A stretch of 64,000 bases of DNA from an uncultured SAR86 cluster bacterium. Lineage in GTDB: Bacteria; Pseudomonadota; Gammaproteobacteria; Magnimaribacterales; AG-339-G14. The stretch is from NCBI GenBank assembly GCA_902528485.1, contig CABZTA010000002.1:559-64558 (forward strand), written 5' to 3'. The translations under genes and the position numbers were made by a program. Shown in pieces: positions 18,636 through 50,142 of the stretch. The notes beneath the pieces were generated by a model, which made no database searches, was not told the origin of the DNA, and worked only from the letters and a program-made list of their open reading frames with translations. The first letter of the stretch is position 1, and each line of letters opens with the position of its first letter.

Positions 18636-18640
18636 TCATC

Positions 18641-25101: not shown

Positions 25102-25106
25102 CTCTT

Positions 25107-25847: not shown

Positions 25848-25855
25848 ATACTATC

Positions 25856-27270: not shown

Positions 27271-27731
27271 ATTTCGAAGCAATTTTTTATGATTTCGATG
27301 GCGTAATGACCGACAATACTGTACAGATTTCTCAAGATGGTTCTGAGTTTGTGAGAGTCAATCGAGGGGATGGATTGGCTATTTCAGAAATTAAAAAATT
27401 AAAAATTTACCAAGCTATAATCTCTACAGAAAAAAATCCAGTAGTTAAGGCCAGGTCAGAAAAACTTCAAATCCCATGCTTTCAAGGTGTCTTGAACAAA
27501 CTTAATGAGGTAAATAATATCTGCGAAGCAAAAAAGATTAATCTTAAGAATTCAGCATTTATTGGAAACGATATTAATGACAAAGAAGTCATGGAGTCTA
27601 TTGGTTTATCAGCTTGTCCTTCAGATTCAAACCAGACTATATTAGGCATTTCAGATATCATATTGCAATCCAAGGGCGGAGATGGAGTAATCCGGGAATT
27701 TTATGATTACATTTTAGGAGAAATAAGATGA
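27267..27731 (+). CDS. HAD-IIIA phosphatase of the KdsC family (ulosonate-phosphate phosphatase)
   Basis: 154 aa. FDFDGVMTD, RDG-like GDGLAI and GNDINDKEVMESIGLSACPSDS align with E. coli KdsC LDVDGVLSD ... GDDLIDWPVMEKVGLSVAVADA. Confidence 0.8.
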   Translation: MNFEAIFYDFDGVMTDNTVQISQDGSEFVRVNRGDGLAISEIKKLKIYQAIISTEKNPVVKARSEKLQIPCFQGVLNKLNEVNNICEAKKINLKNSAFIGNDINDKEVMESIGLSACPSDSNQTILGISDIILQSKGGDGVIREFYDYILGEIR

Positions 27732-28561: not shown

Positions 28562-28575
28562 TATCAACTTCGTAA

Positions 28576-30299: not shown

Positions 30300-30302
30300 T
30301 TT

Positions 30303-31823: not shown

Positions 31824-31841
31824 AATTAATTTTATATAACT

Positions 31842-32819: not shown

Positions 32820-32821
32820 AA

Positions 32822-34405: not shown

Positions 34406-34406
34406 T

Positions 34407-35234
34407 ATGCCCAATAAAATATCTAATCCACCTTTAGATGAAAGATCAAATTTCTTAAGAAGTCTTGTAGTCAGGGCTTTGCAAGGAGGTAACAGAGGTC
34501 ACATAGGATCCTCAATGTCCTTGATAGAAATTTTAAGAGTACTTTTTGATGATATTCTTAAATTTAAATCTAACGATCCCTCTTGGGAAGACAGAGATAG
34601 ATTAATTTTAAGTAAAGGACATGGCTGCTTAGCTTTGTATGCATTGCTTGCTGATAAAGAGTTTTTTAGTTTATCTGAGCTGGATAAATTTTGTCATAAC
34701 GATGGAATGCTCGGAGGGCACCCAGAAAGAAACAAAATTCCAGGAGTAGAGGCGTCTACCGGAGCTTTAGGTCATGGTTTATCAATAGGCGTAGGAATGG
34801 CTTTAGCCTGTAAAATTAGAAAAAAAAGTAGCAAGGTTTTCGTTATTGTTGGTGATGGTGAAATAAATGAAGGCTCTGTTTGGGAGGCAGCCATGTGTGC
34901 AGGAAATCATAATCTTGAAAATTTAATCGTGATGATTGATTATAATAAAATTCAATCTTATGGATTCACAAAAGAAGTCGCAGATCTAGAACCTTTAGTG
35001 GATAAATGGAAAGCATTTAATTTTAATGTTTCTGAGGTTGATGGCCACAATATAGAAGACATAAGATCTGTTCTTAAAAAAAAATCCTCTAAAAAACCTT
35101 TAGCGGTTATCTGTCACACTGTAAAAGGAAAGGGAATAGGTTTTGCTGAAAATGACCCTAAATGGCATCACAAATCCAACCTAGAGGATTCTGATATTAA
35201 AGACATGTATAAATCCCTTAAAGCAGAAATTTAA
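34407..35234 (+). CDS. Transketolase, N-terminal (ThDP pyrophosphate-binding) subunit
   Basis: 275 aa. GHIGSSMS, SKGHG, GALGHGLSIGVGMA and GDGEINEGSVWEA motifs of split transketolases. Confidence 0.88.
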   Translation: MPNKISNPPLDERSNFLRSLVVRALQGGNRGHIGSSMSLIEILRVLFDDILKFKSNDPSWEDRDRLILSKGHGCLALYALLADKEFFSLSELDKFCHNDGMLGGHPERNKIPGVEASTGALGHGLSIGVGMALACKIRKKSSKVFVIVGDGEINEGSVWEAAMCAGNHNLENLIVMIDYNKIQSYGFTKEVADLEPLVDKWKAFNFNVSEVDGHNIEDIRSVLKKKSSKKPLAVICHTVKGKGIGFAENDPKWHHKSNLEDSDIKDMYKSLKAEI

Positions 35235-35236
35235 AA

Positions 35237-36157
35237 ATGAGACCTACAAGCCTAAATTGTGTTTATGAACTAGCTCAAAAAGATGAAAGAGTAATTTTTA
35301 TAGGCTCTGATCTTGGTCCTGGAGTTTTAGATGATTTCAAAAAAAATATTCCAGAAAGATTTTTTATGGAAGGAGTAGCAGAACAACATATCGTTGGCAT
35401 GGCTGCTGGTATGGCACTGGAGGGTTTTATTCCTTATGTCAATACAATCGCAACTTTTCTAACAAGGAGATGTTTTGAACAAAATATGATTGATCTAGGA
35501 TTACACCGGACTAATGTGAGGTTAATTTCAAATGGAGGAGGTCTAGTTTATGCTCCTTTGGGGCCAACCCATCTTGCCATAGAAGACATATCTATAATGA
35601 GGACTATACCTAATATGACGATCGTTTCTCCAGCAGATGCCAATGAAATGAGGAGATTCATGATGCAGACAATAGATTATGAAGGTCCGATATACATTAG
35701 ACTGGCAAAAGGCTATGACCCAATAGTCACTCCAGATGATATTCCCTTTAAAATTGGAAAAGCTCTCAAAGTACAAGATGGTAACGATGTATTGTTAGTA
35801 ACTACTGGAATTACCTTGGGTATTGCCAAAGAAGTGTCTGATGTTTTAAAAAAAGAAAATATAAATTGCTCTATTCTTCACATGCATACTCTAAAGCCTA
35901 TTGATGAAGAAGCCCTAATCCAGTCATCAAACGAAGTTCAGTCAGTAATTACTCTCGAAGAACATACTATCGTTGGAGGCCTAGGAAGTGCATGTGCTGA
36001 ATTAATACTAGAAGAAGGTATAAACATCAAAAATTTTAAAAGGATTGGAATAAATGATCTCTTTCCATCTGGTTACGGTTCCCAAGCAGACATGATGAAA
36101 AGAAATGGTTTATCAGTTGAGAATGTTATTAGTACTATTAAAACTTTCAGTAAATAG
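35237..36157 (+). CDS. Transketolase, C-terminal (pyrimidine-binding) subunit
   Basis: 306 aa. FFMEGVAEQHIVGMAAGMA, GPTHLAIEDISIMR and a C-terminal transketolase-C domain. Confidence 0.88.
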   Translation: MRPTSLNCVYELAQKDERVIFIGSDLGPGVLDDFKKNIPERFFMEGVAEQHIVGMAAGMALEGFIPYVNTIATFLTRRCFEQNMIDLGLHRTNVRLISNGGGLVYAPLGPTHLAIEDISIMRTIPNMTIVSPADANEMRRFMMQTIDYEGPIYIRLAKGYDPIVTPDDIPFKIGKALKVQDGNDVLLVTTGITLGIAKEVSDVLKKENINCSILHMHTLKPIDEEALIQSSNEVQSVITLEEHTIVGGLGSACAELILEEGINIKNFKRIGINDLFPSGYGSQADMMKRNGLSVENVISTIKTFSK

Positions 36158-36169
36158 AGGAAGGAAATC

Positions 36170-36835
36170 ATGGGAAAATTAGTAAATTTTGTCACCTCGC
36201 TTCATCAGGCGACATCAAGAGATTATTTAGCAAGGATGATTGATGAAAAGGTCCACTGCATGCAAAAAGCGAAAGAATATGAAAAAGATTATTGGGATGG
36301 CGACAGAAGATATGGGTATGGAGGTTATAAATATCTTCCAGGTAGATGGAAGCCTGTAGCTGAATCTCTGATCGAGGAATATGAACTGGATAACGATTCA
36401 TCAATCTTAGATGTTGGCTGTGGAAAAGCTTTCCTCTTGCACGAAATCAAATTGATTTTGCCAGAAATAAAAATTAGTGGATTTGATATATCTAATCACG
36501 GTCTTGAATGCTCTAAAGATGAGATAAAAAAAGATCTATTTATTCACAAGGCACAAGAACTCTTTCCCTTCAAAGATAAAGAGTTTGATTTAGTCATCTC
36601 TCTAGGTTGCCTTCATAATTTAAGACTTTTTGAACTCGAGGTAGCTCTTAAAGAAATTCAAAGGGTGGGAAAAAATGGATATGTAATGCTGGAGAGTTAT
36701 AGAAATGAACTTGAACAATTTAATTTGCAATGTTGGGCCCTAACCTGCGAATCATTTTTTGACAAAGAGGAATGGATTTGGCTTTATAAACATTTCGGAT
36801 ACGAAGGAGATTACGAATTTATTTATTTCGAGTGA
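36170..36835 (+). CDS. Class I SAM-dependent methyltransferase
   Basis: SAM motif I ILDVGCGKAFLL and acidic motif II GFDIS. 221 aa. Confidence 0.75.
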   Translation: MGKLVNFVTSLHQATSRDYLARMIDEKVHCMQKAKEYEKDYWDGDRRYGYGGYKYLPGRWKPVAESLIEEYELDNDSSILDVGCGKAFLLHEIKLILPEIKISGFDISNHGLECSKDEIKKDLFIHKAQELFPFKDKEFDLVISLGCLHNLRLFELEVALKEIQRVGKNGYVMLESYRNELEQFNLQCWALTCESFFDKEEWIWLYKHFGYEGDYEFIYFE

Positions 36836-36841
36836 ATAATA

Positions 36842-37873
36842 ATGAAAGCAGCTGTATTAGTAGAAAGTAAGAAGCCCTTAAAAATTGAAAATCTAGAGCT
36901 ACCCGAATTAAGTTTTGGGCAGGTTCATGTAAAACTTAAATACAGCGGCATTTGTGGAGCACAAATCAATGAAATTGATGCTGTTAAAGGCCCAGATAAA
37001 TTTCTTCCGCATCTTTTGGGCCACGAAGGTTCTGGCATTGTAATTAAAGTTGGAGAGGGGGTTACTACTCTTGAAGAAGGGGATCATGTAGTTCTTCATT
37101 GGCGCCCTAGCAAAGGTATAGAAAGTCAAACTCCAAAATACAAGATGGGGAACTCCACTGTAAATGCAGGATGGGTTACAACCTTTAATGAGGAGGCAAT
37201 AATATCTGAAAATAGGCTTACAAGAATTCCCAAAGATTTTGATATGAAGGTTGCAACCCTTTTTGGATGCGCAGTCACAACTGCATTTGGTGTCATAAAC
37301 AATGATGCAATGGTCAAAGTCGGTCAATCCATAGTAATCTTTGGATTAGGCGGAGTTGGGCTAAATTTAGTGCAAGCAGCAAGCATGGTCTCTGCCAACC
37401 CAATTATAGGTATAGATATTTTGGATGAAAAAATTTCTATGGCAAAAAAATTTGGCCTTTCCTATGGAATTAATTCAACCAAAGTAGATTTGGAAAAAGA
37501 GTTAAATAAGATCTTAAAAGGCAATGATGCAGATGTAGTAATTGATACTACTGGAATCACAAATGTAATAGAAAAAGCTTATGAAATAACGCATAAAGAT
37601 GGAAAAACTATATTAGTTGGAGTTCCAAAAAAAGGAGAAAATGTATCAATTTATACTTTGCCGCTGCATTTTAAAAAGATCCTCAAAGGATCGGAGGGGG
37701 GCGACTGTAAGCCTGACGAAGATATCCCTCGATTTATAAATCTTATTAATGACAGCAAAATGACTTTAGATGGAATAATAACTCATGAATTCAAACTAGA
37801 CGAAATAAATTCAGCTATTGATTTATTTCGTCAAAATAAAGCTGGCAGAATACTTATTGATCTTGACGGCTAA
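36842..37873 (+). CDS. Zinc-dependent medium-chain alcohol/polyol(-phosphate) dehydrogenase
   Basis: GICGAQINE, GHEGSGIV and the Rossmann motif VIFGLGGVGL. 343 aa. Confidence 0.82.
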   Translation: MKAAVLVESKKPLKIENLELPELSFGQVHVKLKYSGICGAQINEIDAVKGPDKFLPHLLGHEGSGIVIKVGEGVTTLEEGDHVVLHWRPSKGIESQTPKYKMGNSTVNAGWVTTFNEEAIISENRLTRIPKDFDMKVATLFGCAVTTAFGVINNDAMVKVGQSIVIFGLGGVGLNLVQAASMVSANPIIGIDILDEKISMAKKFGLSYGINSTKVDLEKELNKILKGNDADVVIDTTGITNVIEKAYEITHKDGKTILVGVPKKGENVSIYTLPLHFKKILKGSEGGDCKPDEDIPRFINLINDSKMTLDGIITHEFKLDEINSAIDLFRQNKAGRILIDLDG

Positions 37874-39310
37874 ATGTCATCACTGATAGTTGATTTAGAT
37901 GGAACTCTCACTGACACAGATTGTTCTGTTGAGTCTCTGCTTTCTGCTGTAATTAAAAATCCACTTATTATTTTTTATTCAATATTTTGGTATTTCAAAG
38001 GAAAGCCTTATTTAAAGAAAAGACTTTTTGACGCTTCTAATTTTCATGTTAAGAATTTACCTTTCAATGAGTCTGTTATAGAAATAATAAAGGATGCAAA
38101 AGTTCAAAATAATAAAATCTATCTTTTTACTGGATCGACTCAAAAGATAGCAGACGAGGTATCAGATCATTTAAATCTTTTTGATGGGTCCTTTGGCTCA
38201 AATGAAAAAATCAATCTCACTTCATACAATAAACTCATAAAAATAAGAGATATAATTGGAAATGAACCATTCTCTTATGTTGGAAATTCTAAAGCTGACT
38301 TACCTATCTGGGAAGAAGCTGAAAAAATATACATAGTTTCTAACTTTGGAGAAAGCCTAAAAAATAAATTGAAAAATAAGGCACCAAAAGTCATTCTAAA
38401 ATCTGAGAATTCATATCTTAGTTTCATAAAGATTTTGAGACCTTATCAGTGGTTCAAAAACGTATTGGTTTTTGTACCTTTCTTTATATATGAATATTCA
38501 ACATTAAATGAATTTTGGATGTCAATTATTGGCTTCATCTCTTTTAGCCTTGCTGCTTCATCTGTCTATATTCTGAATGATCTTTTAGATGTTTCCTCTG
38601 ATAGAGAACACCCAACAAAAAAGAAAAGACCTTTCGCATCTGGGGAACTAAACCTACTTCACAGTTTTTGGATGATTCCAGTTTTATTGATTCCTAGTTT
38701 AATTCTTGCATCATCAGTATCTTTTAATTCTCTTATTATTATTTCTTCTTATCTACTAGTAACATTTCTTTATTCTGTTTATTTAAAAAAGGTTCTCATT
38801 TTAGATATATGCATTCTTGCAAGTCTTTATACACTTAGACTGATCGGTGGTGCTATTTTTATTCAATCCGAATTTTCACTTTCTCCATGGCTAATAAACT
38901 TCTCTATATTTTTCTTTTTCTTTTTAGCGTGCATAAAAAGAGAATCGGAATTGATAATAGGAATTGATTCAAAAAAAGAAAATTCACGAAGATCTTATTT
39001 CGAAGAAGATAAAAAAATTATCTCAACTCTCTCGGTATCTTCTGGATTATTATCAGTATTAATTTTGTTGCTTTATGCAGAAAATTCCATGAATTCTTCA
39101 GCTTTTTCTTCTCCAATATTATTATGGTTTTTAAGTCCTGTGTTTTTATATTGGATATCAAGATTTTGTATTATTTCTTCAAGAGGTTTCATAAAAGAAG
39201 ATCCTTTATTTTTTGCAATAAAAGATAGGGTAAGTATTTTATTTGCAATTTTAGTTTTCACAATTATTTCCGCAGCGAAGTTTTTAGAAATTAGTTATTT
39301 TCTGAATTAA
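37874..39310 (+). CDS. HAD phosphatase domain fused to a UbiA-family polyprenyl-phosphate phosphoribosyltransferase (Rv3806c-like)
   Basis: N-terminal LIVDLDGTLTDTD ... YVGNSKADLP. The C-terminal YILNDLLDVSSDREHPTKKKRPFASGEL parallels M. tuberculosis Rv3806c NDVRDVEADREHPTKRFRPIAAG. Multiple TM helices. Confidence 0.8.
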   Translation: MSSLIVDLDGTLTDTDCSVESLLSAVIKNPLIIFYSIFWYFKGKPYLKKRLFDASNFHVKNLPFNESVIEIIKDAKVQNNKIYLFTGSTQKIADEVSDHLNLFDGSFGSNEKINLTSYNKLIKIRDIIGNEPFSYVGNSKADLPIWEEAEKIYIVSNFGESLKNKLKNKAPKVILKSENSYLSFIKILRPYQWFKNVLVFVPFFIYEYSTLNEFWMSIIGFISFSLAASSVYILNDLLDVSSDREHPTKKKRPFASGELNLLHSFWMIPVLLIPSLILASSVSFNSLIIISSYLLVTFLYSVYLKKVLILDICILASLYTLRLIGGAIFIQSEFSLSPWLINFSIFFFFFLACIKRESELIIGIDSKKENSRRSYFEEDKKIISTLSVSSGLLSVLILLLYAENSMNSSAFSSPILLWFLSPVFLYWISRFCIISSRGFIKEDPLFFAIKDRVSILFAILVFTIISAAKFLEISYFLN

Positions 39311-39312
39311 AA

Positions 39313-41439
39313 ATGACGTACAAATATCTAATAGGATTTGTATTTATTCTTTTTTGTATCCTAATTTTTTTATCAACTAACTTTTGGTCAGGCCTTAATC
39401 CCTCAAATTTATCAGATTGGGAGGATTGGAATTATTGGAGCCAAGTATCTCAAGAGAACCAGTTTTATCATCCATTTTTAATAAATCCCTACCAAGGGCT
39501 TTTTGGATATTCATTACCAGTAAACTCATTTCTAAATCCAATTTTTCTAGTTGCTAATCTTTTGAGCAATATTGACAACTATCATATTACGACGAAATTG
39601 CTTGTTGTGATGGTTGAGTCACTTTGTTTAATAATTTTTTTAAAAAGTCTTAAAGTAAATAATTTCTCTATTATTTTTACTTCTTTGCTAAATATTTTTT
39701 TATTCACTTCTTTATTCAATTTATCAGATTGGTCTTTGAGAATTTTTGAAAACTTAATAGACGTTAGTATTTTAAAATCTTTTATTTTATTAATTTTCAC
39801 CTTATTAATTTCTAAGCCTTTATTTTTTAATAACAAAAAGGTTTTTTTAACTCTTGCTTTGTTTTTTTGGGCTTATGCACTAAATCCTTCTTATTTATTA
39901 ATTTACATAGCCTTACCAGCATTTTTTCTTTTAATATTTTATGTTTTTGATGCCAAGAAAAACTTTTTATTTTTTTATAAAAAACAACTGTTAATTCTGA
40001 TTATTTTTTTTGTGCCTCTATTTATTGTCTATTATATTTTTTCTGGAATTTCTGCTAGAAGTGTCTTTGGTAACGAGATAACAAATGAAGTTCAAACTTT
40101 TGATTACTTGAATGTTATATTTTTTAGACCTTCACCTTACTCGGGTTTATTTGCATTTATAACTCTTATCGCCTCATTTTATTTAGTCTTCACGAAGCAC
40201 AAAAGTTTTGGGATTGCCACTATTTCAACCTTTGTTTTATTACTCATCATTGGAGTGTTATACACTTTTACAGGGATAGTATGGAAATATCCAAGTCCAG
40301 TTTATCTTGAGCAGTCAATTTACTTAATTTTTTTAGCATCTATTGCCCTTTGCATCAAAAAAGAGAATATTCTGATAAGCATATTTTTAATTTCATCATG
40401 CAGTTTTTTAGCTTATAAAATTTCCAAACCTAGAATAGCTGACCTTTTTGATAATGAAGGGATTTATCAATCAGCAGACCTTTTGAGAGTTGATGCTCCA
40501 ATTTTTGACATAATTAATGAATTAAGATTTGAAAATGAGTTCAAGGGATCTTTTGCAACAATATTCCCAATGAAAAATAATTTTTATTTAGGCAAAAAAA
40601 TAGAAAATAATTATGAAAAATCGTGGGTTTATGTAAGAAATATGCAAAGGCATTTATACAATAATATTGACAAGAAAATATTTACAACCTCTTTATGGGA
40701 AAACAGGATTCCTTCTTTAGAGGATCATAATCACCTTATTTCTCCATTTAAATATTTCTTCTTTTCGAGGCTTTTATCTTATCCTCAAGATTATCAGAAA
40801 AAAAACTGGCTATTTGCATCAAAAGTAGATTTAACAATCTTAAAAATGCTAGGCGTAAAATATTTATTAACAAATCAGATCTTGGATGAAAAAGAATTAT
40901 TTTTAAAATCATCTGAATCAGATGACTATCGTTTATATCAGTTAAGTAATCCTAATTTAGGAGATTACTACGTTAAAAAAATTGATTTCTTTGAAGACTC
41001 GTCTGAATTTATGAATCGCTTCAATCAGAAAAGTATAGATTTTAGATCCACAGCTTATCTCCATCAGAATGATCAACTTAAACTTCATAAAGACTTATCC
41101 ATCGGGCAAACAGAAATCTTTGAAATTGATAAAAACTCAATAAGAATAAAAGCTAAAACTGAGAGTGCTTCCTTATTAATTTTACCCATAGAATATAGGA
41201 ATATATTTAAATCTAATGAAAGCAATAACTTTACAATATTTAGAGTTAATTTATTTCTCACAGGAATTTATTTTGAAAAGAGTATCGATTTAAAAATTAA
41301 GTATAATTCCTCATTTCTTAAAACATTAAATGGATTTAAAAAGGATATTTCTGATCTGGATGGTTATAAATTTGAAGAAGGTTTCATTACTTATCCTTAT
41401 GATGCTTATCAACCAAAAAGCTTATTTTTAAATGAATGA
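39313..41439 (+). CDS. Large polytopic membrane protein with a C-terminal soluble domain, candidate GT-C glycosyltransferase
   Basis: 708 aa. About 11-13 hydrophobic segments occupy the first 380 aa or so, followed by a hydrophilic domain of about 330 aa. The first loop carries the acidic motif SDWEDWNYW. It lies between the UbiA-like and DprE1-like genes. Confidence 0.45.
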   Translation: MTYKYLIGFVFILFCILIFLSTNFWSGLNPSNLSDWEDWNYWSQVSQENQFYHPFLINPYQGLFGYSLPVNSFLNPIFLVANLLSNIDNYHITTKLLVVMVESLCLIIFLKSLKVNNFSIIFTSLLNIFLFTSLFNLSDWSLRIFENLIDVSILKSFILLIFTLLISKPLFFNNKKVFLTLALFFWAYALNPSYLLIYIALPAFFLLIFYVFDAKKNFLFFYKKQLLILIIFFVPLFIVYYIFSGISARSVFGNEITNEVQTFDYLNVIFFRPSPYSGLFAFITLIASFYLVFTKHKSFGIATISTFVLLLIIGVLYTFTGIVWKYPSPVYLEQSIYLIFLASIALCIKKENILISIFLISSCSFLAYKISKPRIADLFDNEGIYQSADLLRVDAPIFDIINELRFENEFKGSFATIFPMKNNFYLGKKIENNYEKSWVYVRNMQRHLYNNIDKKIFTTSLWENRIPSLEDHNHLISPFKYFFFSRLLSYPQDYQKKNWLFASKVDLTILKMLGVKYLLTNQILDEKELFLKSSESDDYRLYQLSNPNLGDYYVKKIDFFEDSSEFMNRFNQKSIDFRSTAYLHQNDQLKLHKDLSIGQTEIFEIDKNSIRIKAKTESASLLILPIEYRNIFKSNESNNFTIFRVNLFLTGIYFEKSIDLKIKYNSSFLKTLNGFKKDISDLDGYKFEEGFITYPYDAYQPKSLFLNE

Positions 41440-42745
41440 TCATAATTATTTTTCATGGGGAAGGTTGAAAAGAGCATCTGCTCCACAAGTTATTAAGCCA
41501 AATAATTATGAAGATTTACTTAAAAACCTAAAAAAACATAGAAAGCTTGGCAAAGTTTTACCAATTGGATTAATGAGATCATATGGTGATAGCTGCCTTA
41601 TAAAAGAAGGTTTATTACTAGATATGACTGAATTTAAAAAGATAAATAGCTTTGATGAACAATCAGGACTAATTAATGTTCAGGCAGGGATTTCTTTGGA
41701 CGAGCTTTTAAAGTTTATAGTGCCTAAAGGATGGTTTATTCCGACATCACCCGGAACAAAATATGTAACCATTGGTGGCGCCATAGCTAATGATATTCAT
41801 GGAAAAAACCATCATAAATTTGGATCTTTTTGTAATTCAGTCAAAAAGATAAAAGTCTTATCAACTGAGGGCAAATTACAGCTTCTTGAAGATCCTGATG
41901 ATGAAATGTTCAAGGCAACATGTGGTGGTCTAGGATTGACAGGATTAATTTTAGAAGCAGAAATAGAATTAGCAGAAATCAAAAGTTCATACCTTAATGT
42001 AGAAACAATAAAATTTAACAATTTAAAAGAATTTTTTGAAATTGAAAAACAAAGTATAGAAAATTATGAATTTACAGTTTCTTGGATTGACCTCACAAAT
42101 GAGAGTAAATATTTTGGTCGAGGATTATTTCAAAGAGCAAATTGGGCAGATGATAAAGATCTTACGCCTCACTCTTCTTTCAAAATTCCAATTCCTTTTG
42201 GCGTAGGATTTAATTTAGTCAGCAAAAAGCTCATGAAATTATTCAATTTTCTGTATTTTTCTAAAAATTTAAAAAAGAAAACAAAAGAAAAAACTCATTA
42301 TGGCACTTTTTTTTACCCCCTTGATGTCTTGAGAGGATGGAATAAGCTTTATGGAAAAAATGGATTTTCTCAATATCAATTTGTATTGCCAGAAGAAAAT
42401 TCAAAGACTGGTTTAGATGAAATCCTTGAAGTTCTCAAAAATGATAAATTCATGCCTAGGCTATGTGTTTTAAAAACTTTTGGCAAGATACCTTCATTAG
42501 GACATTTAAGTTTTCCACTAAAAGGAACTACCTTGGCTATGGATTTTCCCGTTAATATTAAAAAAAATAAGAATCTCTATAGCAAACTTGATGAAATTGT
42601 TATTAAAAACGGTGGAAGAATTTATCCTGCAAAAGACAGCTTTATGAATAGTAAAACTTTTCAGAGTTCTTATAAAAATTTTCATAAATTCAAGAAATTT
42701 AAAGATACGCATATCTCGTCAGATTTCTGGGAAAGAGTTTCATGA
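41432..42745 (+). CDS. dprE1: FAD-dependent polyprenylphospho-ribose 2'-oxidase (DprE1-like)
   Basis: [35 protein letters not shown] (Mtb [26 protein letters not shown]), [19 protein letters not shown]. Confidence 0.85.
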   Translation: [437 protein letters not shown]

Positions 42746-43491
42746 GTAAAAACCTAGTTATTCTAGGAGCGACTTCTGAAATTGGTATGGAAGTTAATAA
42801 ATTGTTTGCTCAAGAAGGTTGCAATTTCATATTAGTAGGAAGGTCAGAAGAAAGCTTAAAAACACATAAAGAAGTTTTAAAACATCGTGGTGCAAATAAG
42901 GTAATTTCTTATTTCTTAGATTTTGCTGACGAGAACGATGAAGTAAAACTTTTTAATCTTTTTGAAGAGAAATTAGAGGGACCTATAGACATCATTTTTT
43001 TAAATTATGCAGTCCTTGGAAGACAAGAAGAAGAAGAAGTAAATTTATCTTTTGCAATGAAAAATATTTATATAAATTTTATTTCAGCTTTCAAATGGGC
43101 TTTTGCTGCAGGAAATTATTTCAAGGATAAAGATGGAAGATTTATATATTTAAATTCTGTAGCAGCTGAAAGGGGCAGGAGAGGTAATTTTTTTTATGGA
43201 GCATCGAAATCTGGAATGAAGACAATCATGGAAGGATTTGCCAACAAATTTGCCTATAGCAATACTTTTTTTATCAATATTAAGTTAGGCATAATTAAAA
43301 CTAGAATGAGTAGTGAAGTAAAAGGAGTTTCATCCTTTTTAGCATACGATCCAATAAAAACAGCCAGAAAAATTTTCTTGATAACCAAACTAAATAAACC
43401 AAGGAGCTCTTACTACCTTCCTTATTTTTGGAAATATATAATGCTCATCATAAAATTACTCCCTGAGAAAATATTATTTAAAATTAATTAA
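42742..43491 (+). CDS. dprE2: Polyprenylphospho-2'-keto-ribose reductase (DprE2-like SDR)
   Basis: VILGATSEIGMEV, NSVAAERGRRGNFFYGASKSGM (Mtb [22 protein letters not shown]), IIKTRMS, and the C-terminal hydrophobic tail WKYIMLIIKLLPEKILFKIN (Mtb [21 protein letters not shown]). Confidence 0.85.
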   Translation: MSKNLVILGATSEIGMEVNKLFAQEGCNFILVGRSEESLKTHKEVLKHRGANKVISYFLDFADENDEVKLFNLFEEKLEGPIDIIFLNYAVLGRQEEEEVNLSFAMKNIYINFISAFKWAFAAGNYFKDKDGRFIYLNSVAAERGRRGNFFYGASKSGMKTIMEGFANKFAYSNTFFINIKLGIIKTRMSSEVKGVSSFLAYDPIKTARKIFLITKLNKPRSSYYLPYFWKYIMLIIKLLPEKILFKIN

Positions 43492-44426
43492 TGAGGAAAA
43501 TTTTAATAACTGGAGGGGCAGGTTTACTGGGATTTAATCTTTGCAAAGTTCTTTCAGAAAAAGATGATGTTCAATTAACAGTATTAGATAAAAATTTAGA
43601 AAATTTAAAAAAACTTCAAATTTTTTTTCCTTCAGTAAACGTTATAAAAGCAGATTTGGCTGTATTGGATGGATGGGAGAAAGGAATTTCAAATTATGAC
43701 CACTTAATAATATGTCATGCACAAATTACCTCATTAGATGAATTAGACTTCGAAAAAAATAATATTTCATCAACAAAGAATCTTTTGAAAATATTTGAGA
43801 ATAATAACCTAAATAGCTGTATTCACATCAGCAGTTCAGTTGTTAATTCAAAGGCAGATGACTTTTATTCTAGAACTAAGAGAGAGCAAGAAAAATTGGT
43901 AATATCTTCAAAACTTCCATACACAATTCTTCGGCCTACTTTGATGTTTGGCCTTTTTGATAGAAAACATTTAGGTTGGTTATCAAAGTTCATGTCAAAA
44001 TCACCTGTTTTTCCGATACCTGGAAAAGGTGAATACTTGAGGCAGCCACTTTATGCAAAAGATTTTTGCAGAATTATAGAAGAATGCCTTCATGGCAGAC
44101 ATGTTGGAAAAGTTTATAACATAAGCGGTCAGACCAAAATTTTTTACATCGACATAATAAGATCTATAAAAAAAGTAACAAATTCAAAATCAATAATCAT
44201 GCATATTCCCTATAGTTTCTTCTTCATTCTTTTAAAGATATATTCTGTATTTGTCACTAATCCACCATTTAATGTGAATCAGTTAAGAGCTTTAGTTATC
44301 CCAGAAACTTTTGAAATAATCGATTGGGAAAACATTTTTTCCATTAAACAAACTGATTTTCTGGAAGCATTAGACGAAACTTTTAATGATCCTTCTCTTT
44401 CAAACTTGGAATTAGATAGATTATGA
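43491..44426 (+). CDS. NAD(P)-dependent epimerase/dehydratase-family protein
   Basis: ILITGGAGLLGFNL Rossmann motif, YSRTKRE active-site-like motif. 311 aa. Confidence 0.65.
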   Translation: MRKILITGGAGLLGFNLCKVLSEKDDVQLTVLDKNLENLKKLQIFFPSVNVIKADLAVLDGWEKGISNYDHLIICHAQITSLDELDFEKNNISSTKNLLKIFENNNLNSCIHISSSVVNSKADDFYSRTKREQEKLVISSKLPYTILRPTLMFGLFDRKHLGWLSKFMSKSPVFPIPGKGEYLRQPLYAKDFCRIIEECLHGRHVGKVYNISGQTKIFYIDIIRSIKKVTNSKSIIMHIPYSFFFILLKIYSVFVTNPPFNVNQLRALVIPETFEIIDWENIFSIKQTDFLEALDETFNDPSLSNLELDRL

Positions 44427-45712
44427 AGAGCATAGGGATTTTAGGTGCAGGACCAATGGGATTGGCCTGCGCTTATTATGCTCAAAAAAAGGGGTATAAG
44501 GTCACCTTAATAGAAGCTGCTCCATTTATTGGAGGAATGGCATCTCACTTCGAACTAAGTGGAACATCTATTGAAAAATTTTATCATTTTATATGTAAGA
44601 CGGATTTCGATACTTTTGAACTTCTAGATGAGTTGCAGCTATCTGATAAATTAATCTGGAAAAATACATCCATGGGTTATTTTATTGAAGGAAAACTTTA
44701 TAAATGGGGAGATCCATTTTCTCTATTATTTTTTGAAAAATTTAGTTTAATTTCAAAAATCCGATATGGTCTTAACGCTTTTTTTACTAGCAAAAGAAAG
44801 AATTTTGATTCTCTTGAAAACTTAAGTGCTGAAGAATGGCTAAAGTCTTGGATAGGAGAAAAGGCCTATGATCTTGCATGGAAAAAATTAATGGATTATA
44901 AGTTTTATGAATATTCTTCATCTATTTCTGCAGCTTGGATAGCTACAAGGATGAAAAGAGTGGGAAATTCAAGAAAATCTATTTTTCAAGAGCAATTAGG
45001 ATATTTAGAAGGCGGATCGGAGACTTTAGTCAATGCTCTTGCAGATAAAATAAAAGATGACGGAGGAAAGATTATCATCAATTCTCCTGTAACAAATTTA
45101 ATGATTTCTGAAAAAAAAATCCTTGGCTTAGAAGCAAATAATGAGAAATTATATTTTGACTCTGTAATTTCAACTATACCCACACCCTATTTAGATGAAA
45201 TTTTAGGTGAAACTTCATTAGACTTTAGAAACAAATATAAACAAATAGAAAATATTGGAGTCGTCTGTGTCATATATAAGCTTAAAAAGGGCGTTTCAAA
45301 ACATTTCTGGGTAAATATAAATGACGAAAGGTTTGAGCTTCCGGGTTTGATAGAATTTTCAAATCTAAGAAAAATTGAAAATGATTTAAAAATAATTTAT
45401 CTGCCTTATTACATGCCAATTACACATGAAAAATTTGAAAAAAATGATGAATATTTTTTTGAGGAAACTTTTAACTACCTACAAATGCTTAATCCTAATT
45501 TAGAAAAAGAGGATGTTATTGATTTTTCGGTAAATAAATTAAAATATGCTCAACCTATTTGCAATGTAGGCTTCAAAGAAAATATTCCTCCAATACAAAC
45601 CGATATTGAAGATTTATATATTGCTGACACTTGTTTCTATTACCCGGAAGATAGAGGAGTATCTGAAAGCATTAAACTAGCGAAAACAATAATTGAAAAA
45701 ATCGTTATCTAG
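44423..45712 (+). CDS. FAD-dependent oxidoreductase (amine-oxidase / UDP-galactopyranose-mutase-like fold)
   Basis: IGILGAGPMGLACAYYAQKKGYKVTLIEAAPFIGGMA dinucleotide motif. 429 aa. The specific function is not assignable. Confidence 0.6.
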   Translation: MKSIGILGAGPMGLACAYYAQKKGYKVTLIEAAPFIGGMASHFELSGTSIEKFYHFICKTDFDTFELLDELQLSDKLIWKNTSMGYFIEGKLYKWGDPFSLLFFEKFSLISKIRYGLNAFFTSKRKNFDSLENLSAEEWLKSWIGEKAYDLAWKKLMDYKFYEYSSSISAAWIATRMKRVGNSRKSIFQEQLGYLEGGSETLVNALADKIKDDGGKIIINSPVTNLMISEKKILGLEANNEKLYFDSVISTIPTPYLDEILGETSLDFRNKYKQIENIGVVCVIYKLKKGVSKHFWVNINDERFELPGLIEFSNLRKIENDLKIIYLPYYMPITHEKFEKNDEYFFEETFNYLQMLNPNLEKEDVIDFSVNKLKYAQPICNVGFKENIPPIQTDIEDLYIADTCFYYPEDRGVSESIKLAKTIIEKIVI

Positions 45713-46097
45713 ACAATTTCCTACCTTTTTAATTACTGCTGGTGTTGCTGCTTTAGTAAATCTGGCCAGTAGATATTTTTTAAATTTATATATTTCTTTC
45801 GAGTTATCTGTTTTCTTAGCTTACTGTGTGGGAGTTGTTGTGGCTTACACCCTAGCAAAATATTTTGTCTTTGTTTCTAGAAATGAAGATTTAGGTTTAG
45901 AGTTTCTAAGATTCATCATTGTAAATGTTATTTCTTTGGCAATCGTTTGGACAGTTAGCGTGTCTTTAAGAAATATTATCTTTCCTGGATTTGAGATGGA
46001 TTTTTATCCCGAAACAGTCTCGCACATCATCGGGGTAGCAAGTCCTGCTATTTTTAGTTTTTTTGCACATAAGACTTACACTTTTAACGAAAGATAA
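45693..46097 (+). CDS. GtrA-family small membrane protein (candidate polyprenyl-phospho-sugar translocase)
   Basis: 134 aa with four hydrophobic helices. The FLRFIIVNVISLAI and HKTYTF ending are typical of GtrA-like proteins. TTG start. Confidence 0.7.
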   Translation: MKKSLSRQFPTFLITAGVAALVNLASRYFLNLYISFELSVFLAYCVGVVVAYTLAKYFVFVSRNEDLGLEFLRFIIVNVISLAIVWTVSVSLRNIIFPGFEMDFYPETVSHIIGVASPAIFSFFAHKTYTFNER

Positions 46098-46134: not shown

Positions 46135-46803
46135 ATGAAAACAAAAGATCCTGTAAACCAAGATTTGATTGAGCATGAAATAAATTCTGGATACGAAAAA
46201 CTTGGTCTTATGAATAGTAAAGTTTGGTCAGAAGATCCTAAAAGACTCATATTTACACTATCTAGGTACAAATTTGTTTCAAAGATGTTTAATGGAATTG
46301 ATTCTGTTCTAGAAATAGGTTGCGGTGATGGATTTGGATCTAAAATAGTTAATCAAACGGTAAAGAATTTAACTATATCTGACTATGATCCACTATTCAT
46401 AGATCGTTTTAACGCAGACTTAAATACGAAGTCAGATATTAAAGCGGTTACTCACGATTTTTTAGAAAAAGAATTTTCTAAATCTTTTGATGCAATTTAT
46501 TCATTAGATGTTTTAGAACACATACATCCTGAAAAGGAACACTTATTTATTTCAAACTGTGTGAAGTCTTTAAAAAAAGATGGTGCATTAATATTTGGCA
46601 TGCCGAGCCTAGAATCTCAGTTGTATGCATCTCCAGCAAGCAAAGAAGGCCATGTGAATTGTAAATCTGGTAATGACTTTAAAGAATGTATGGAAAAATA
46701 CTTTAAAAATGTTTTCCTATTTTCAATGAATGATGAGGTCATTCATACAGGCTTTGAAAAAATGTCACATTATTTGTTTACTCTTTGCGTAGGTAAAATC
46801 TAA
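46135..46803 (+). CDS. Class I SAM-dependent methyltransferase
   Basis: VLEIGCGDGFGS motif I, DAIYSLDVLEHI. 222 aa. Confidence 0.75.
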   Translation: MKTKDPVNQDLIEHEINSGYEKLGLMNSKVWSEDPKRLIFTLSRYKFVSKMFNGIDSVLEIGCGDGFGSKIVNQTVKNLTISDYDPLFIDRFNADLNTKSDIKAVTHDFLEKEFSKSFDAIYSLDVLEHIHPEKEHLFISNCVKSLKKDGALIFGMPSLESQLYASPASKEGHVNCKSGNDFKECMEKYFKNVFLFSMNDEVIHTGFEKMSHYLFTLCVGKI

Positions 46804-47573
46804 TGAGATTAATTATTGGTGCAGATAGTAAGGTTGGATCTGCACTAGCTAGAAATTGGGCAAGGAAAAACATTAAGTTTCACGGAACTTCTAGAAGAAA
46901 TGCTCCTGAGTCAGAGAATATTTTTTTTGACCTATCAGACTTTGAATCTTCAAGTCTAAAAAAAGTCTACGATAAAATAGTTCTGTGTGCTGCTATTACA
47001 GATATGAACTATTGTGAAAATAATCCAGAAAAGAGCCATTCAATAAATGTCGATGCTGTAAAAAAGATATTGGATTTTTTTTATGATTCTAAACAAATAA
47101 TACTTCTCTCAAGCTCGCAAGTATTTGATGGTTCTAAACCTTTTAGGCAACCTAACGAAAAGAAAAATCCTATAAACGAATATGGAAAACAAAAATCAGT
47201 AATGGAAGATATTGCTTTAGCATATGAGAATGCAACTATTTTAAGATTTAGTAAAATTGTTGATGAGAAAGATGAATTATTCCTCAATTGGAAAAAAGAT
47301 CTTCTTTCAGAGAAAGAAATTTATGCATTTTATGATTACAGCATCTCTGCAACCCCAATTGAAAAAGTAGTCTCAAAGATAAATACTTTAATGGATAAAG
47401 AAGTTTTTGGAACATTTCATTGTGAAGGAAAAAAAGATCAGCCTTATTATGAGTATGCTAAAGATTTGGCAGTAAGCTTAGATCGGTCAGTGAGCCTTGT
47501 TAAAAAGATTTCATACAAAGAGAAAAAATTCGATTATAAACTTCCTCGTTATGTTAGTTTGAGGGATACTTAA
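46803..47573 (+). CDS. Sugar-nucleotide-binding reductase-like protein (RmlD/extended-SDR-like)
   Basis: 256 aa. N-terminal MRLIIGADSKVGSAL and a YGKQK active-site-like motif. Weak assignment. Confidence 0.4.
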   Translation: MRLIIGADSKVGSALARNWARKNIKFHGTSRRNAPESENIFFDLSDFESSSLKKVYDKIVLCAAITDMNYCENNPEKSHSINVDAVKKILDFFYDSKQIILLSSSQVFDGSKPFRQPNEKKNPINEYGKQKSVMEDIALAYENATILRFSKIVDEKDELFLNWKKDLLSEKEIYAFYDYSISATPIEKVVSKINTLMDKEVFGTFHCEGKKDQPYYEYAKDLAVSLDRSVSLVKKISYKEKKFDYKLPRYVSLRDT

Positions 47574-47587
47574 ATTTGGGGTTAGAT

Positions 47588-48151
47588 ATGGAAAAACAAA
47601 TTCTTCAAGATTATTTTAATGATCTATCAAAACTGCTTAGTTTTGATGATGAAATACTGCATAAGATAGTTGAAATTAAATCAAAGATTATTACCACCAA
47701 CGAAAATGGCGGGAAAATATTAATTTTTGGAAATGGTGGAAGTGCAGCTATTGCCTCTCATTTTAGTGTTGATCTTACAAAAAATGCCAAGGTGAGATCT
47801 GTCAACTTTAATGAAGCAGATCTTATAACTTGTTTCGCTAATGACTTTGGCTTTGAGAATTGGATTGCAGAGGCAATAAATTTTTATGCCGACGAACAGG
47901 ATTCCGTAATTTTTATCTCCTCAAGTGGAAAATCTCAGAATATGGTTTTAGGAGCTGAAAAGGCTAAACAAAGTAACCTCAATTCAATTATTACCTTCAC
48001 TGGATTTGAAAAGGATAATCTTTTATCGTCGAAAGGTGACATTAATATTTGGATCGACTCTAAAGCTTATAATTTTGTTGAAAATATCCATCAAATCATT
48101 CTCTTATCGATAGTGGATTTGATAATTGGAGATAGACATTACGAAGCATAA
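47588..48151 (+). CDS. SIS-domain phosphoheptose isomerase paralogue (GmhA-like)
   Basis: IFGNGGSAAIASHFSVDLTKN, ANDFGFENW and SSSGKSQN motifs. ATG 47588 is preferred over TTG 47576. Confidence 0.7.
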   Translation: MEKQILQDYFNDLSKLLSFDDEILHKIVEIKSKIITTNENGGKILIFGNGGSAAIASHFSVDLTKNAKVRSVNFNEADLITCFANDFGFENWIAEAINFYADEQDSVIFISSSGKSQNMVLGAEKAKQSNLNSIITFTGFEKDNLLSSKGDINIWIDSKAYNFVENIHQIILLSIVDLIIGDRHYEA

Positions 48152-48262: not shown

Positions 48263-48943
48263 ATGGACGATTATTTAGAGAAAAGTTTTTCTCAAGAAGG
48301 ACAAGATTTAATTCTCAAATCTATTTTTAGGAATGTTGAAGTTGGAAATTATTTGGAAATAGGTTCCTATAAACCAGCAGATCTCAGCAATACTTATAAA
48401 CTTTATCTTGAAGGATGGCGGGGAGTTTGTATTGATGGAAATCCATCATTGAAAAAAGAATGGCTTGATAAAAGACCTCAAGATATTTTTATAAATACAT
48501 TTGTAACTGATAAAAAAAAATCCGTAACCTATAGTATTTTTCCAGAGAAATTTGAGACTATGAACTCGATTGATCCTCAAACTTCATTGAGATATGCGCA
48601 AAGATTTAAAAAATCAGAAATTCAAACTGAAGTTCATGAGGCTGATGGAGTTAATGAAATTCTCGAAAAATACTTTAATAATAAAGAGCTCCATCTTATT
48701 TGTTGTGATGTTGAAGGATCAGAGTTTAAAATTTTTAACAGCATAGATTTTGATAAGTTTTTTCCAGGGGCAATCTTAGTAGAGGTAAAAAATTTTAATT
48801 TCTCCTCATTCAAAGAGGATAAGTTAGTATCCCTTTTGTATAAAAAAGGCTACAAATTATTTTCTAAAACTCCTCTTGATTGCTTTTTTGTTCATCCTTC
48901 AAAGAAATATTTTGATTGGGTTCCTAAAGAAATGTTGATTTGA
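48263..48943 (+). CDS. Putative methyltransferase (FkbM-like)
   Basis: 226 aa. YLEIGSYKPADLSNT ... GVCIDGNP ... CCDVEGSEF resembles the FkbM-type layout. Modest confidence. Confidence 0.4.
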   Translation: MDDYLEKSFSQEGQDLILKSIFRNVEVGNYLEIGSYKPADLSNTYKLYLEGWRGVCIDGNPSLKKEWLDKRPQDIFINTFVTDKKKSVTYSIFPEKFETMNSIDPQTSLRYAQRFKKSEIQTEVHEADGVNEILEKYFNNKELHLICCDVEGSEFKIFNSIDFDKFFPGAILVEVKNFNFSSFKEDKLVSLLYKKGYKLFSKTPLDCFFVHPSKKYFDWVPKEMLI

Positions 48944-50142
48944 AAATAATAATAAAAAGCATTAAGTTCTTACTAAAAGCTTTTCTATCTTTTACAATTC
49001 TTCCATTCTTAATCTTGATAAGATTCTTATCCTTTTTTCTTCTGATCAGAGTTGGTTTTTTATATGTCGATAGAATTGGTCATTTGATTGCTGACCTAGA
49101 ATTATATTTATCTGAAAAAAAACTTGAGATCGAACCTAATTCAATAGATATTTTCTTCTTATCAGGTAAACCAGCAAATTCTTTTGCAATTGACCTTGCC
49201 AAACGAAATTTGAATACTGTAAATGGTTTGGGTTTTATTATTGATTTAAACAATTTTCTACCTTTCTCCAAGAAACATTCATACAAGCCATATATTATTA
49301 GAACTTCTTCAAGGGATACATCAGGAACTTTAAAAAAAGTTAGCCCTCAATTGAAATTCACCGCTGATGAAAACAAGAGAGGAGAAGATTTTCTTAAGTC
49401 TATAGGACTCAAAAAAGATCAAAAATTTGTCTGTTTTACTATTAGAGATAATCAATATCTTAAAAATGAGTTCCCGGATATAGATTTTTCATATCATTCT
49501 TACAGAGACTCAGATATTTCTAAATTTTATCCATCTTTTAATTATTTGCTGGAAAAAGGATATGCCCTTTTTAGGATGGGAAAGCATGTCTCTTCTGAGG
49601 TAAAAATTGATAATCCCTCATTTTTTGATTATTCCATAAGTGACTTTAGGTCAGATTTTTTAGATATCTGGCTAATGGCAAATTGTTCATTTACAGTCAG
49701 CACTGGAACAGGAATTGATGAAGTTGCGAACGCTTTTAGAAAACCTATCTGTTATGTAAATTTTTTACCACTTTTGCTATTTAATTCCTATAATCCCAAG
49801 ACTTTGACTACGCCAAAGACTTTGTTAAATCCAGACACAAAAAAACCTGTGACTATATTAGAAATGATCGAAGAATATGATGATTTAGAGAAATTTCAAA
49901 ATGGGGACCTTTTATATGTTGAAAATACTGAAAACGAGATAATTGATGCTATAAAAGAAATAGAGAGAAAAATAGATAGCAATTGGTCCTTAAATGAAGA
50001 AGAAATGATAATTAGAAACAAAATTTTAAAGTTATTAATGAAATGGGAAAATATTCATATTTTTCATCCAAGGAATTTTAGTAATTCAGGCAATATAAGC
50101 TTTACTTACCTAAAGCAAAGAGAATATTTACTTAATGAGTGA
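48940..50142 (+). CDS. Membrane-anchored protein of unknown function, possible GT-B-like glycosyltransferase
   Basis: 400 aa. N-terminal TM helix, then FTIRDNQYLK ... SYRDSDI ... LFRMGK ... SFTVSTGTGIDEVANAFRKPICYVNF. I recall this pattern from a family of putative glycosyltransferases found in polysaccharide loci, but I have not verified it. Confidence 0.3.
   Translation: MKIIIKSIKFLLKAFLSFTILPFLILIRFLSFFLLIRVGFLYVDRIGHLIADLELYLSEKKLEIEPNSIDIFFLSGKPANSFAIDLAKRNLNTVNGLGFIIDLNNFLPFSKKHSYKPYIIRTSSRDTSGTLKKVSPQLKFTADENKRGEDFLKSIGLKKDQKFVCFTIRDNQYLKNEFPDIDFSYHSYRDSDISKFYPSFNYLLEKGYALFRMGKHVSSEVKIDNPSFFDYSISDFRSDFLDIWLMANCSFTVSTGTGIDEVANAFRKPICYVNFLPLLLFNSYNPKTLTTPKTLLNPDTKKPVTILEMIEEYDDLEKFQNGDLLYVENTENEIIDAIKEIERKIDSNWSLNEEEMIIRNKILKLLMKWENIHIFHPRNFSNSGNISFTYLKQREYLLNE

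Follow-up and report, generated by a model that had tools for sequence, protein, structure and literature searches.

A predicted operon for lipid-linked pentofuranose synthesis and transfer, with two additional conserved enzymes and a GT-C candidate, in a SAR86 glycan island

The 64,000-nt stretch of DNA analyzed here (positions 559 to 64,558 of contig CABZTA010000002.1, assembly GCA_902528485.1, from an uncultured SAR86 cluster bacterium; hereafter called the window) contains, at positions 37874-46097, seven genes that probably constitute an operon for the extracytoplasmic pentofuranosylation of a surface polysaccharide, which would itself be specified by the surrounding glycan island. The operon is predicted to produce a polyprenyl-phosphate-linked pentofuranose derived from phosphoribosyl pyrophosphate (PRPP), which would be tailored by redox enzymes in the cytoplasm, flipped across the membrane with the assistance of a GtrA-family protein and transferred by a glycosyltransferase of the GT-C fold; we assign this reading a probability of roughly 0.7. 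An initial annotation of the region had proposed the periplasmic D-arabinofuranosylation, or a related pentofuranosylation, of a surface glycan or protein. Pentofuranosylation of a glycan is still the best reading, but it is not certain that D-arabinofuranose (D-Araf) is what the pathway finally yields. The general idea of that annotation is correct and not new, as a system of this kind was described in Gram-negative bacteria in 2024; the operon differs from it by two additional conserved enzymes and an unclassified GT-C candidate.

All seven open reading frames (ORFs) are intact, lie on the plus strand and are closely packed, with a gap of 2 nt after the first gene followed by overlaps of 8, 4, 1, 4 and 20 nt. 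A promoter and terminator scan found no excess of promoter- or terminator-like sites over shuffled sequence in the region, and the seven ORFs read as part of a single long co-directional transcription unit. All ORFs and motifs quoted in the initial annotation were recovered at their positions. In order, the seven genes and their products are:

37874-39310, plus strand: HAD (phosphoribose-phosphatase-like) domain fused to a predicted UbiA-type polyprenyl-phosphate 5-phosphoribosyltransferase, 478 aa (PRK08238, Rv3806c, Pfam UbiA)
39313-41439, plus strand: candidate glycosyltransferase of the GT-C fold with a C-terminal beta-rich periplasmic domain, 708 aa (AlphaFold2 (AF2) model and Foldseek)
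41432-42745, plus strand: DprE1 homologue, an FAD-dependent oxidase whose predicted target is the 2'-OH of polyprenyl-phosphate-ribofuranose, 437 aa (PDB 4aut)
42742-43491, plus strand: DprE2 homologue, classical short-chain dehydrogenase/reductase (SDR), predicted 2'-keto reductase, 249 aa (PDB 21gq_C)
43491-44426, plus strand: GalE-like extended SDR of the NAD-dependent epimerase/dehydratase family, 311 aa (Pfam Epimerase, E 4.5e-17)
44423-45712, plus strand: PRK07233-type FAD/NAD(P)-binding oxidoreductase of the amine-oxidase/CrtI/PPOX superfamily (the flavoprotein), 429 aa
45693-46097, plus strand: small membrane protein of the GtrA family, proposed flippase of lipid-linked sugars, 134 aa (Pfam GtrA_DPMS_TM)

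In the proposed mechanism, the UbiA domain would transfer ribofuranose-5-phosphate from PRPP onto polyprenyl phosphate, probably undecaprenyl phosphate (Und-P), and the fused HAD domain would take off the 5-phosphate, yielding polyprenyl-phosphate-ribofuranose. The DprE1 homologue would then oxidize C2', and re-reduction by the DprE2 homologue would lead to the arabino configuration. The 311-aa SDR and the flavoprotein would most likely modify the lipid-linked sugar by an additional redox step, for instance a second epimerization at C3, and the donor is probably not plain Araf. GtrA would bring this donor to the periplasmic face, where the 708-aa GT-C protein would move the pentofuranose onto the glycan, thereby freeing polyprenyl phosphate.

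The synthase, the DprE homologues and the GtrA protein

The best full-length match of the first protein, in whose ORF (37874-39310) the sequence NDLLDVSSDREHPTKKKRPFASG was found, is the NCBIfam equivalog PRK08238, which covers residues 3-469 and scores 497 bits against a cut-off of 351. Pfam detects a UbiA domain (E 2.8e-22) and, weakly, a HAD domain at residues 4-108, whose DLDGT motif can be read from the sequence at residues 7-11. Among PDB sequences, the UbiA part (residues 179-468) matches Rv3806c only (8j8j/8j8k, E 2e-29), and the NCBIfam models for decaprenyl-phosphate phosphoribosyltransferases reach 127-141 bits, compared with at most 34 bits for the heme O synthase and 4-hydroxybenzoate prenyltransferase models. 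Furthermore, NDLLDVSSD and KRESEL of the window protein align to NDVRDVEAD and KRYAEL of 8j8j. Mutational data show that NDxxDxxxD in cytoplasmic loop II and R..E in loop IV are needed in both Rv3806c and ORF15 of Citrobacter youngae (Kelly et al. 2024, PMC11127046). The matches identify the UbiA part as an Rv3806c-type homologue and not as a quinone or heme prenyltransferase, which agrees with the initial annotation, where the transferase had been likened to Rv3806c. No separate gene for an Rv3807c-type phosphatase is present in the interval 37874-46097; the fused HAD domain is found instead. This N-terminal domain had been overlooked in the initial annotation. Homologues of the HAD-UbiA protein occur in 105 plasmid records, 80 of which cover at least 80% of the protein.

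The third protein possesses a VAO-type FAD domain (Pfam FAD_binding_4) and matches the DprE1 structure 4aut with an E-value of 8e-67, the next enzyme of the VAO family, galactonolactone dehydrogenase, following at 1.4e-9. Its ORF (41432-42745) contains the 26-residue motif that had been quoted for a DprE1-like oxidase. HGKNHH and a C-terminal lysine (in GGRIYPAKDS) are aligned with the mycobacterial residues, and we take the histidine and lysine of the former and the C-terminal lysine to have the active-site or catalytic roles that they play in DprE1 structures. The protein is predicted to be insensitive to benzothiazinones because it carries an alanine at the position of Cys387, the target of these compounds in mycobacterial DprE1. 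The classical SDR encoded by ORF 42742-43491, within which AAERGRRGNFFYGASKSG was found, contains a YGASK motif (YxxxK) and has DprE2 as its best PDB match (21gq_C, E 2e-16, versus 1e-9 for FabG); the alignment to DprE2 reaches residue 247 of 249 and covers the hydrophobic C-terminal tail. The likeness to DprE1 and DprE2 that had been proposed earlier, including the shared hydrophobic tail of the latter, was hence confirmed, and neither quinone or heme prenyltransferases nor generic FAD oxidases are the best homologues of the transferase and the oxidase. The 134-aa protein encoded at the end of the operon scores above the cut-off of Pfam GtrA_DPMS_TM (46.9 versus 26.1 bits) and below that of NCBIfam gtrA_1 (25 versus 50). 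It is a family homologue of the GtrA/Rv3789 type, as had been suggested.

Experiments have proven that the O antigen of C. youngae receives side chains of alpha-ribofuranose or xylofuranose (PMC11127046). The machinery consists of three parts, namely ORF15, in which a HAD phosphoribose phosphatase is fused to a UbiA synthase, the flippase ORF14 and the GT-C protein ORF12, founder of family GT136, and the ribo donor is turned into the xylo donor by ORF13, a GalE-like SDR (PMC11127046). The operon of the window shares with this system the HAD-UbiA fusion, a small flippase, a GT-C protein, an O-antigen-type cluster and auxiliary cytoplasmic epimerases, which would set the identity of the pentose. 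Thus, the three components that define such pentofuranose systems, a polyprenyl-phosphate phosphoribose synthase (PPPRS) with a phosphoribose phosphatase (PRP) domain, a flippase and a GT-C protein, are linked in a glycan cluster in the window as well. The systems differ in the flippase, which is of the GtrA type in the window and of the MATE type in C. youngae, and in the auxiliary enzymes, DprE1 and DprE2 homologues, a GalE-like SDR and a flavoprotein in the one case and a single SDR in the other. Moreover, the GT-C protein of the window belongs to a family that pairs with GT2 synthases in its relatives; ORF13 and GT136 were compared by their descriptions only.

With the mycobacterial pathway to decaprenyl-phosphoryl-arabinose (DPA), the operon has in common the homologues of Rv3806c, DprE1 and DprE2, a GtrA-family protein and the overall route, in which a PRPP-derived lipid-linked pentofuranose is handed to an extracytoplasmic GT-C enzyme. 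The initial annotation had called the pathway complete and mycobacterial in type. This does not hold, since the 5-phosphatase step falls to a HAD domain that forms one protein with UbiA and the architecture is therefore that of ORF15, whereas the mycobacterial phosphatase is of the Rv3807c type. Further differences are the two additional enzymes, the lipid carrier, which is presumably undecaprenyl-based in the window, and the alanine at the Cys387 position of the DprE1 homologue. The 708-aa protein has no sequence match to any solved GT-C enzyme of the mycobacterial Emb/Aft group and resembles AftD at the level of the fold only.

Among Gram-negative bacteria, lipid-linked Araf was known earlier from rhizobial noeCHOP (PMC11127046) and from the P. 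aeruginosa pilin system. Like the operon described here, the noeC(N)HOP and pilin D-Araf genes use homologues of DprE1, DprE2 and UbiA; unlike it, they lack, according to their descriptions, the SDR-flavoprotein pair and the GT-C family of the window, and their acceptors are Nod factor or pilin instead of a polysaccharide. Outside the actinobacteria, the initial annotation had been aware of such gene sets in a few cases only, a view that is outdated: Kelly et al. call the strategy widespread and mention in passing, without characterizing them, "more elaborate systems" with several epimerases (PMC11127046), and the plasmid records alone amount to the number given above.

The six-gene cassette and its additional enzyme pair

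The four linked genes on which the initial annotation was based belong to a conserved unit of six, and the two enzymes encoded between the DprE2 homologue and GtrA had been passed over. In the 311-aa SDR, GxxGxxG and YxxxK are invariant, and the PDB entry nearest to its profile is 6zl6 ("Epimerase domain-containing protein"), presumably a UDP-glucuronate 4-epimerase, followed by RmlB and the membrane-associated NDUFA9. The 429-aa flavoprotein exceeds the cut-off of NCBIfam PRK07233 (498 versus 252 bits) and matches Pfam Amino_oxidase (E 1.6e-25); its nearest structures are uncharacterized archaeal oxidoreductases, phytoene desaturase and protoporphyrinogen oxidase (PPOX). Literature searches turned up no study on the pair.

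The same seven genes in the same order are present on another marine contig, where the GT-C protein is 43% identical, and in a SAR86 single-cell genome a counterpart of the 708-aa gene (42% identity) precedes a gene for a DprE1 homologue (59% identity). A tblastn search of plasmids with the flavoprotein yielded seven full-length proteobacterial matches (42-50% identity); four of the seven were inspected, and all four lie inside a cassette. In Burkholderia stagnalis, Agrobacterium salinitolerans, Rhizobium tumorigenes and on the Rhodobacteraceae SC52 plasmid, the gene order is UbiA, DprE1 (FAD oxidase), DprE2 (SDR), NAD epimerase, flavoprotein and GtrA, and these four six-gene cassettes come without the 708-aa GT-C gene. 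Identity to the window proteins in the four proteobacterial cassettes amounts to:

UbiA: 30-37%
DprE1 homologue: 34-40%
DprE2 homologue: 28-35%
311-aa SDR: 45-50%
Flavoprotein: 42-50%
GtrA (cassette-terminal protein of the cassettes compared, loci L010-L012): 32-49%

The SDR and the flavoprotein are, as judged by these identities, the best-conserved members of the cassette. The genes are therefore co-conserved in several proteobacteria, and the failure of such conservation, which the initial annotation had named as a possible ground for abandoning its proposal, was not observed. The view that the pair are unrelated passengers was rejected on the basis of their fixed position and their highest conservation in the cassettes of the four proteobacteria. 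A four-gene version of the order UbiA-GtrA-DprE1-DprE2 is found in Ruegeria and Rhizobium sp. Kim5, where it adjoins genes for hypothetical membrane proteins and a GT87 protein; because this version exists too, the SDR-flavoprotein pair marks a distinct conserved variant. A plasmid of Vibrio alfacsensis encodes a HAD-UbiA protein together with an EamA transporter in an XrtA/PEP-CTERM exopolysaccharide locus, and this version is probably of the ribofuranose type, as it has no epimerase.

The most likely function of the SDR and the flavoprotein is a further tailoring of the lipid-linked sugar, and since the pair is the best-conserved part of the cassette, the final donor is probably a further-tailored pentofuranose. 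The foremost alternative is plain D-arabinofuranosylation, for which UbiA, DprE1 and DprE2 would suffice, while the pair would serve another purpose, such as the neighboring nucleoside diphosphate (NDP)-sugar pathway or the redox support of DprE1. This would be in line with the survey of Kelly et al., in which DprE1 and DprE2 homologues go along with Araf-containing glycans (PMC11127046), with the four-gene version, in which the DprE pair makes up a sufficient module by itself, and with the direct precedent that the arabino product alone has in noeCHOP and the P. aeruginosa pilin. However, four unrelated proteobacteria, which lack the NDP-sugar genes that neighbor the operon in the window, have the pair fixed at its place between DprE2 and GtrA, it exceeds the remaining members in conservation, and all full-length proteobacterial plasmid matches of the flavoprotein that were inspected (four of seven) lie within the cassette. 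Plain D-arabinofuranosylation is therefore regarded as possible, if rather unlikely.

If the pair indeed tailors the donor further, one candidate product is D-lyxofuranose, which would arise by epimerization at C2 (DprE1/DprE2) and C3 (SDR); a further oxidized or deoxygenated arabinofuranose is the other candidate. Lyxofuranose, in which C2 and C3 are both inverted, is absent from all solved glycan structures (PMC11127046). We put forward, as a tentative idea that is more probably wrong than right, that the six-gene cassette makes a lipid-linked pentofuranose documented in no glycan, and that this sugar is delivered in SAR86 by an unclassified GT-C protein whose family switches between GT2- and UbiA-made donors.

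The 708-aa GT-C candidate and its donor

The 708-aa protein matches no Pfam or NCBIfam family. Word-indexed searches, even with a profile, gave just 7 relatives; an exhaustive search of representatives at 50% clustering was used instead and found 1071 cluster representatives at E<=1e-3, of which 803 remain at E<=1e-10. When 44 members were compared with Pfam, the only matches were one fused DedA domain and one marginal hit to a nucleoside transporter (E 0.0085), and none of the curated GT-C families (YfhO, PMT_2/ArnT, arabinosyltransferases) was matched; a profile of the family gave zero matches to PDB sequences. An AF2 model based on 5 aligned sequences was unusable (mean predicted local distance difference test, pLDDT, of 53) and was replaced by one based on a 44-sequence alignment, which reached a pLDDT of 83 and a predicted template modelling score (pTM) of 0.87. 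With this model, all of the 11 best Foldseek matches in the PDB are GT-C enzymes, namely STT3, AftD, PglB, ArnT and ALG12, with probabilities of 0.69-1.0. D35, which directly follows the first transmembrane helix, is nearly invariant among the 44 sequences, and residues from about 400 to 708 form the beta-rich domain. According to the model, the 708-aa protein has a GT-C fold, and the polytopic GT-C candidate of the initial annotation is in this respect upheld.

In a Desulfococcaceae genome and on several metagenomic contigs, which contain no UbiA or DprE genes, relatives of the 708-aa protein are encoded beside small GT2 genes and sometimes a GtrA gene. The best matches of these GT2 proteins are PgfS, AglJ, ArnC and PpgS, all of which are polyprenyl-phosphate sugar synthases. 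One relative is fused at its C-terminus to a DedA/VTT domain (P0005, positions 2908-5727 of locus L009; P0008). DedA proteins belong to a family of flippases for the recycling of Und-P, which bring Und-P back to the cytoplasmic face, and the fusion may couple the transferase to the recycling of its lipid by-product. From this context of neighboring GT2 synthases, GtrA and the DedA fusion, the donor of the GT-C protein may be a polyprenyl-phosphate sugar. Relatives that occur with a GT2 synthase and GtrA have the three-component Gtr layout, which is known from the GtrA/GtrB/GtrC-dependent O-antigen glucosylation of Shigella and Salmonella and from the YfhO/CsbB type of teichoic acid glycosylation. 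In contrast to these systems, a UbiA/DprE cassette is present in the window instead of a GT2 gene, and the 708-aa family corresponds neither to Pfam YfhO nor to another curated family. Most simply, it can be read as a family of Gtr-type periplasmic transferases that is tied to a particular acceptor glycan. Since GT-C relatives pair with GT2 synthases and GtrA elsewhere, the UbiA/DprE cassette appears to have taken the place of the GT2 donor synthase around the GT-C gene in the SAR86 lineage. No member of the 708-aa family was found near the six-gene or four-gene plasmid cassettes, where it was looked for, and these cassettes must therefore use other transferases.

It is also conceivable that the 708-aa protein uses a different sugar, made by the genes on either side of the operon (module X), and that another membrane protein, such as the 595-aa product of ORF 51901-53688 (minus strand), transfers the pentose. 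Module X, a conserved set of NDP-sugar genes, comprises two parts:

29322-37873, plus strand: upstream half, encoding two epimerases, an HldE-like kinase/nucleotidyltransferase, a HAD-APH kinase, a split transketolase, a methyltransferase and a zinc-dependent alcohol dehydrogenase (Pfam/NCBIfam)
46135-48151, plus strand: downstream half, encoding a methyltransferase, an RmlD-like reductase and a SIS isomerase (Pfam)

For seven of the eight genes of the upstream half, the best orthologue (40-72% identical) lies beside GT-C homologues in the loci L007, L008 or L009; the HldE-like gene could be compared only with a truncated fragment in L007 (34% over 91 aa). Orthologues of the downstream half in L007 and L008 are 27-53% identical. 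The HldE-like protein has a reversed domain order, with the nucleotidyltransferase preceding the PfkB kinase. Module X accompanies the GT-C family in distant taxa and looks like a pathway for a modified heptose or higher sugar. A separate donor for the 708-aa protein would fit with the arrangement in L007, L008 and L009, where GT-C homologues sit with these flanking orthologues and GT2 genes and without UbiA or DprE genes, and with the existence of a polytopic 595-aa protein to which no family is assigned. Several points, however, render it improbable. The GT-C gene is located between UbiA and DprE1 in three SAR86-type sequences and directly downstream of a lipid-sugar synthase, just as it lies beside a GT2 gene in L009 and on the P0026 contig. 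The window contains no GtrB/ArnC-like GT2; the best matches of its only GT2 are the Leloir enzymes TuaG, EpsE and PglI. Finally, the relative contig with the 43%-identical GT-C protein has, at the position of the 595-aa gene, a 286-aa ORF without Pfam match.

Some of the results count against an operon for extracytoplasmic pentofuranosylation by the GT-C protein. The DprE1 model of NCBIfam is the top match of the DprE1 homologue and scores 361 bits where the equivalog cut-off is 500; for the DprE2 homologue, the DprE2 model scores 110 against 250 and PRK07102 156 against 267. The two proteins are clear homologues, as judged from their alignments, whose identical function is not certified because the scores fall below the NCBI equivalog cut-offs. 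The structural matches of the GT-C fold are modest, with a best E-value of 8.8e-4 and TM-scores of 0.29-0.39, and members of the GT-C family accompany module X, in the absence of UbiA/DprE genes, in the Desulfococcaceae genome and at two metagenomic loci. The association of this family with the pentose cassette is consequently lineage-specific and based on gene position. The roles proposed for the SDR and the flavoprotein are derived from family membership and co-conservation alone, all steps of the mechanism are deduced from homology, and the host is uncultured. In addition, flippase activity has been directly shown for no member of the GtrA family (PMC11127046).

A prenylated-aromatic or isoprenoid redox pathway, as implied by automatic annotations, for which the IMG names of cluster members and the membership in the UbiA and amine-oxidase superfamilies could be cited, is extremely improbable in view of the scores of the quinone and heme models, the gap between DprE1 and galactonolactone dehydrogenase and the location of the genes in a glycan island together with GtrA and a GT-C gene. 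The identity of the first protein as a quinone or heme prenyltransferase was rejected on these model scores. Identical or near-identical proteins are named 4-hydroxybenzoate polyprenyltransferase, L-gulonolactone oxidase and protoporphyrinogen oxidase in databases, and the public annotations of the proteins encoded at 37874-45712 are misleading.

The glycan island and its SAR86 host

The context of the cassette includes genes for an ABC exporter, a Wzz-like protein, glycosyltransferases and NDP-sugar enzymes. The window opens with pntB, gyrA, serC, pheA, aroA and rpsA, and the glycan island of about 45 kb comes after the housekeeping block gyrA-serC-pheA-aroA-rpsA. We take the site next to this block to be the position that the O-antigen locus occupies in Pseudomonas. 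Two tRNA genes, tRNA-Cys (18562-18635) and tRNA-Leu (22525-22611), are located at the start of the island. The GTG start listed for the epimerase ORF 18602-19594 overlaps tRNA-Cys, and its true start is therefore probably further downstream. The following ORF (19591-20451) encodes a 286-aa protein of the UDP-glucose/GDP-mannose dehydrogenase family with partial N-terminal and central domains and may be truncated or frameshifted. A second sugar module, at 22618-29325, contains genes for a CMP-sugar-type cytidylyltransferase, a class IV aminotransferase, a xylose-isomerase-like TIM barrel protein, two SDRs, SIS and HAD proteins, a short NeuB-family protein (277 aa) and a cytidylyltransferase-cupin fusion, and looks like a pathway for a nonulosonic or ulosonic acid.

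Downstream of module X, ORF 48940-50142 encodes a glycosyltransferase of the TIGR04372 family, which carries a membrane anchor at its N-terminus, and ORF 50135-51904 a fused ABC exporter that best matches HepA, MsbA and PglK; in the relative contig with the 43%-identical GT-C protein, the cassette is likewise followed by this pair. The gene for the 595-aa polytopic membrane protein (51901-53688, minus strand) lies beside that for a weakly Wzz-like protein (53685-54596, minus strand). The 595-aa protein belongs to no Pfam or NCBIfam family and has no homologue in the loci compared, including those near other cassettes; a role as polymerase, as ligase or as a second GT-C enzyme is conceivable.

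Marine metagenome assemblies, those of Tara Oceans among them, contain stretches that are identical or near-identical to the locus. The sole named close relative of the window GyrA is that of a SAR86 cluster bacterium (74% identity). This match, the order gyrA-serC-pheA-aroA-rpsA and the GC content of approximately 27-36% identify the host as a SAR86-like, low-GC gammaproteobacterium, in agreement with the low-GC gammaproteobacterial host of the initial annotation, whose term "streamlined" is a fair description on these grounds.

SAR86 bacteria, which are uncultured (PMC3569297), belong to the most abundant groups of their kind in the surface ocean. Their surface glycans probably shape the interactions with phages and grazers, and the locus provides a testable prediction of a furanose side chain. 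The family of the 708-aa protein, which has no Pfam model and numbers over 1000 representatives at 50% clustering, forms a large set of likely periplasmic glycosyltransferases that is still unclassified. As the six-gene cassette is also present in Burkholderia, Agrobacterium and Rhizobium, which can be cultured, genetics could establish what the two additional enzymes do and could reveal a new lipid-linked sugar donor.

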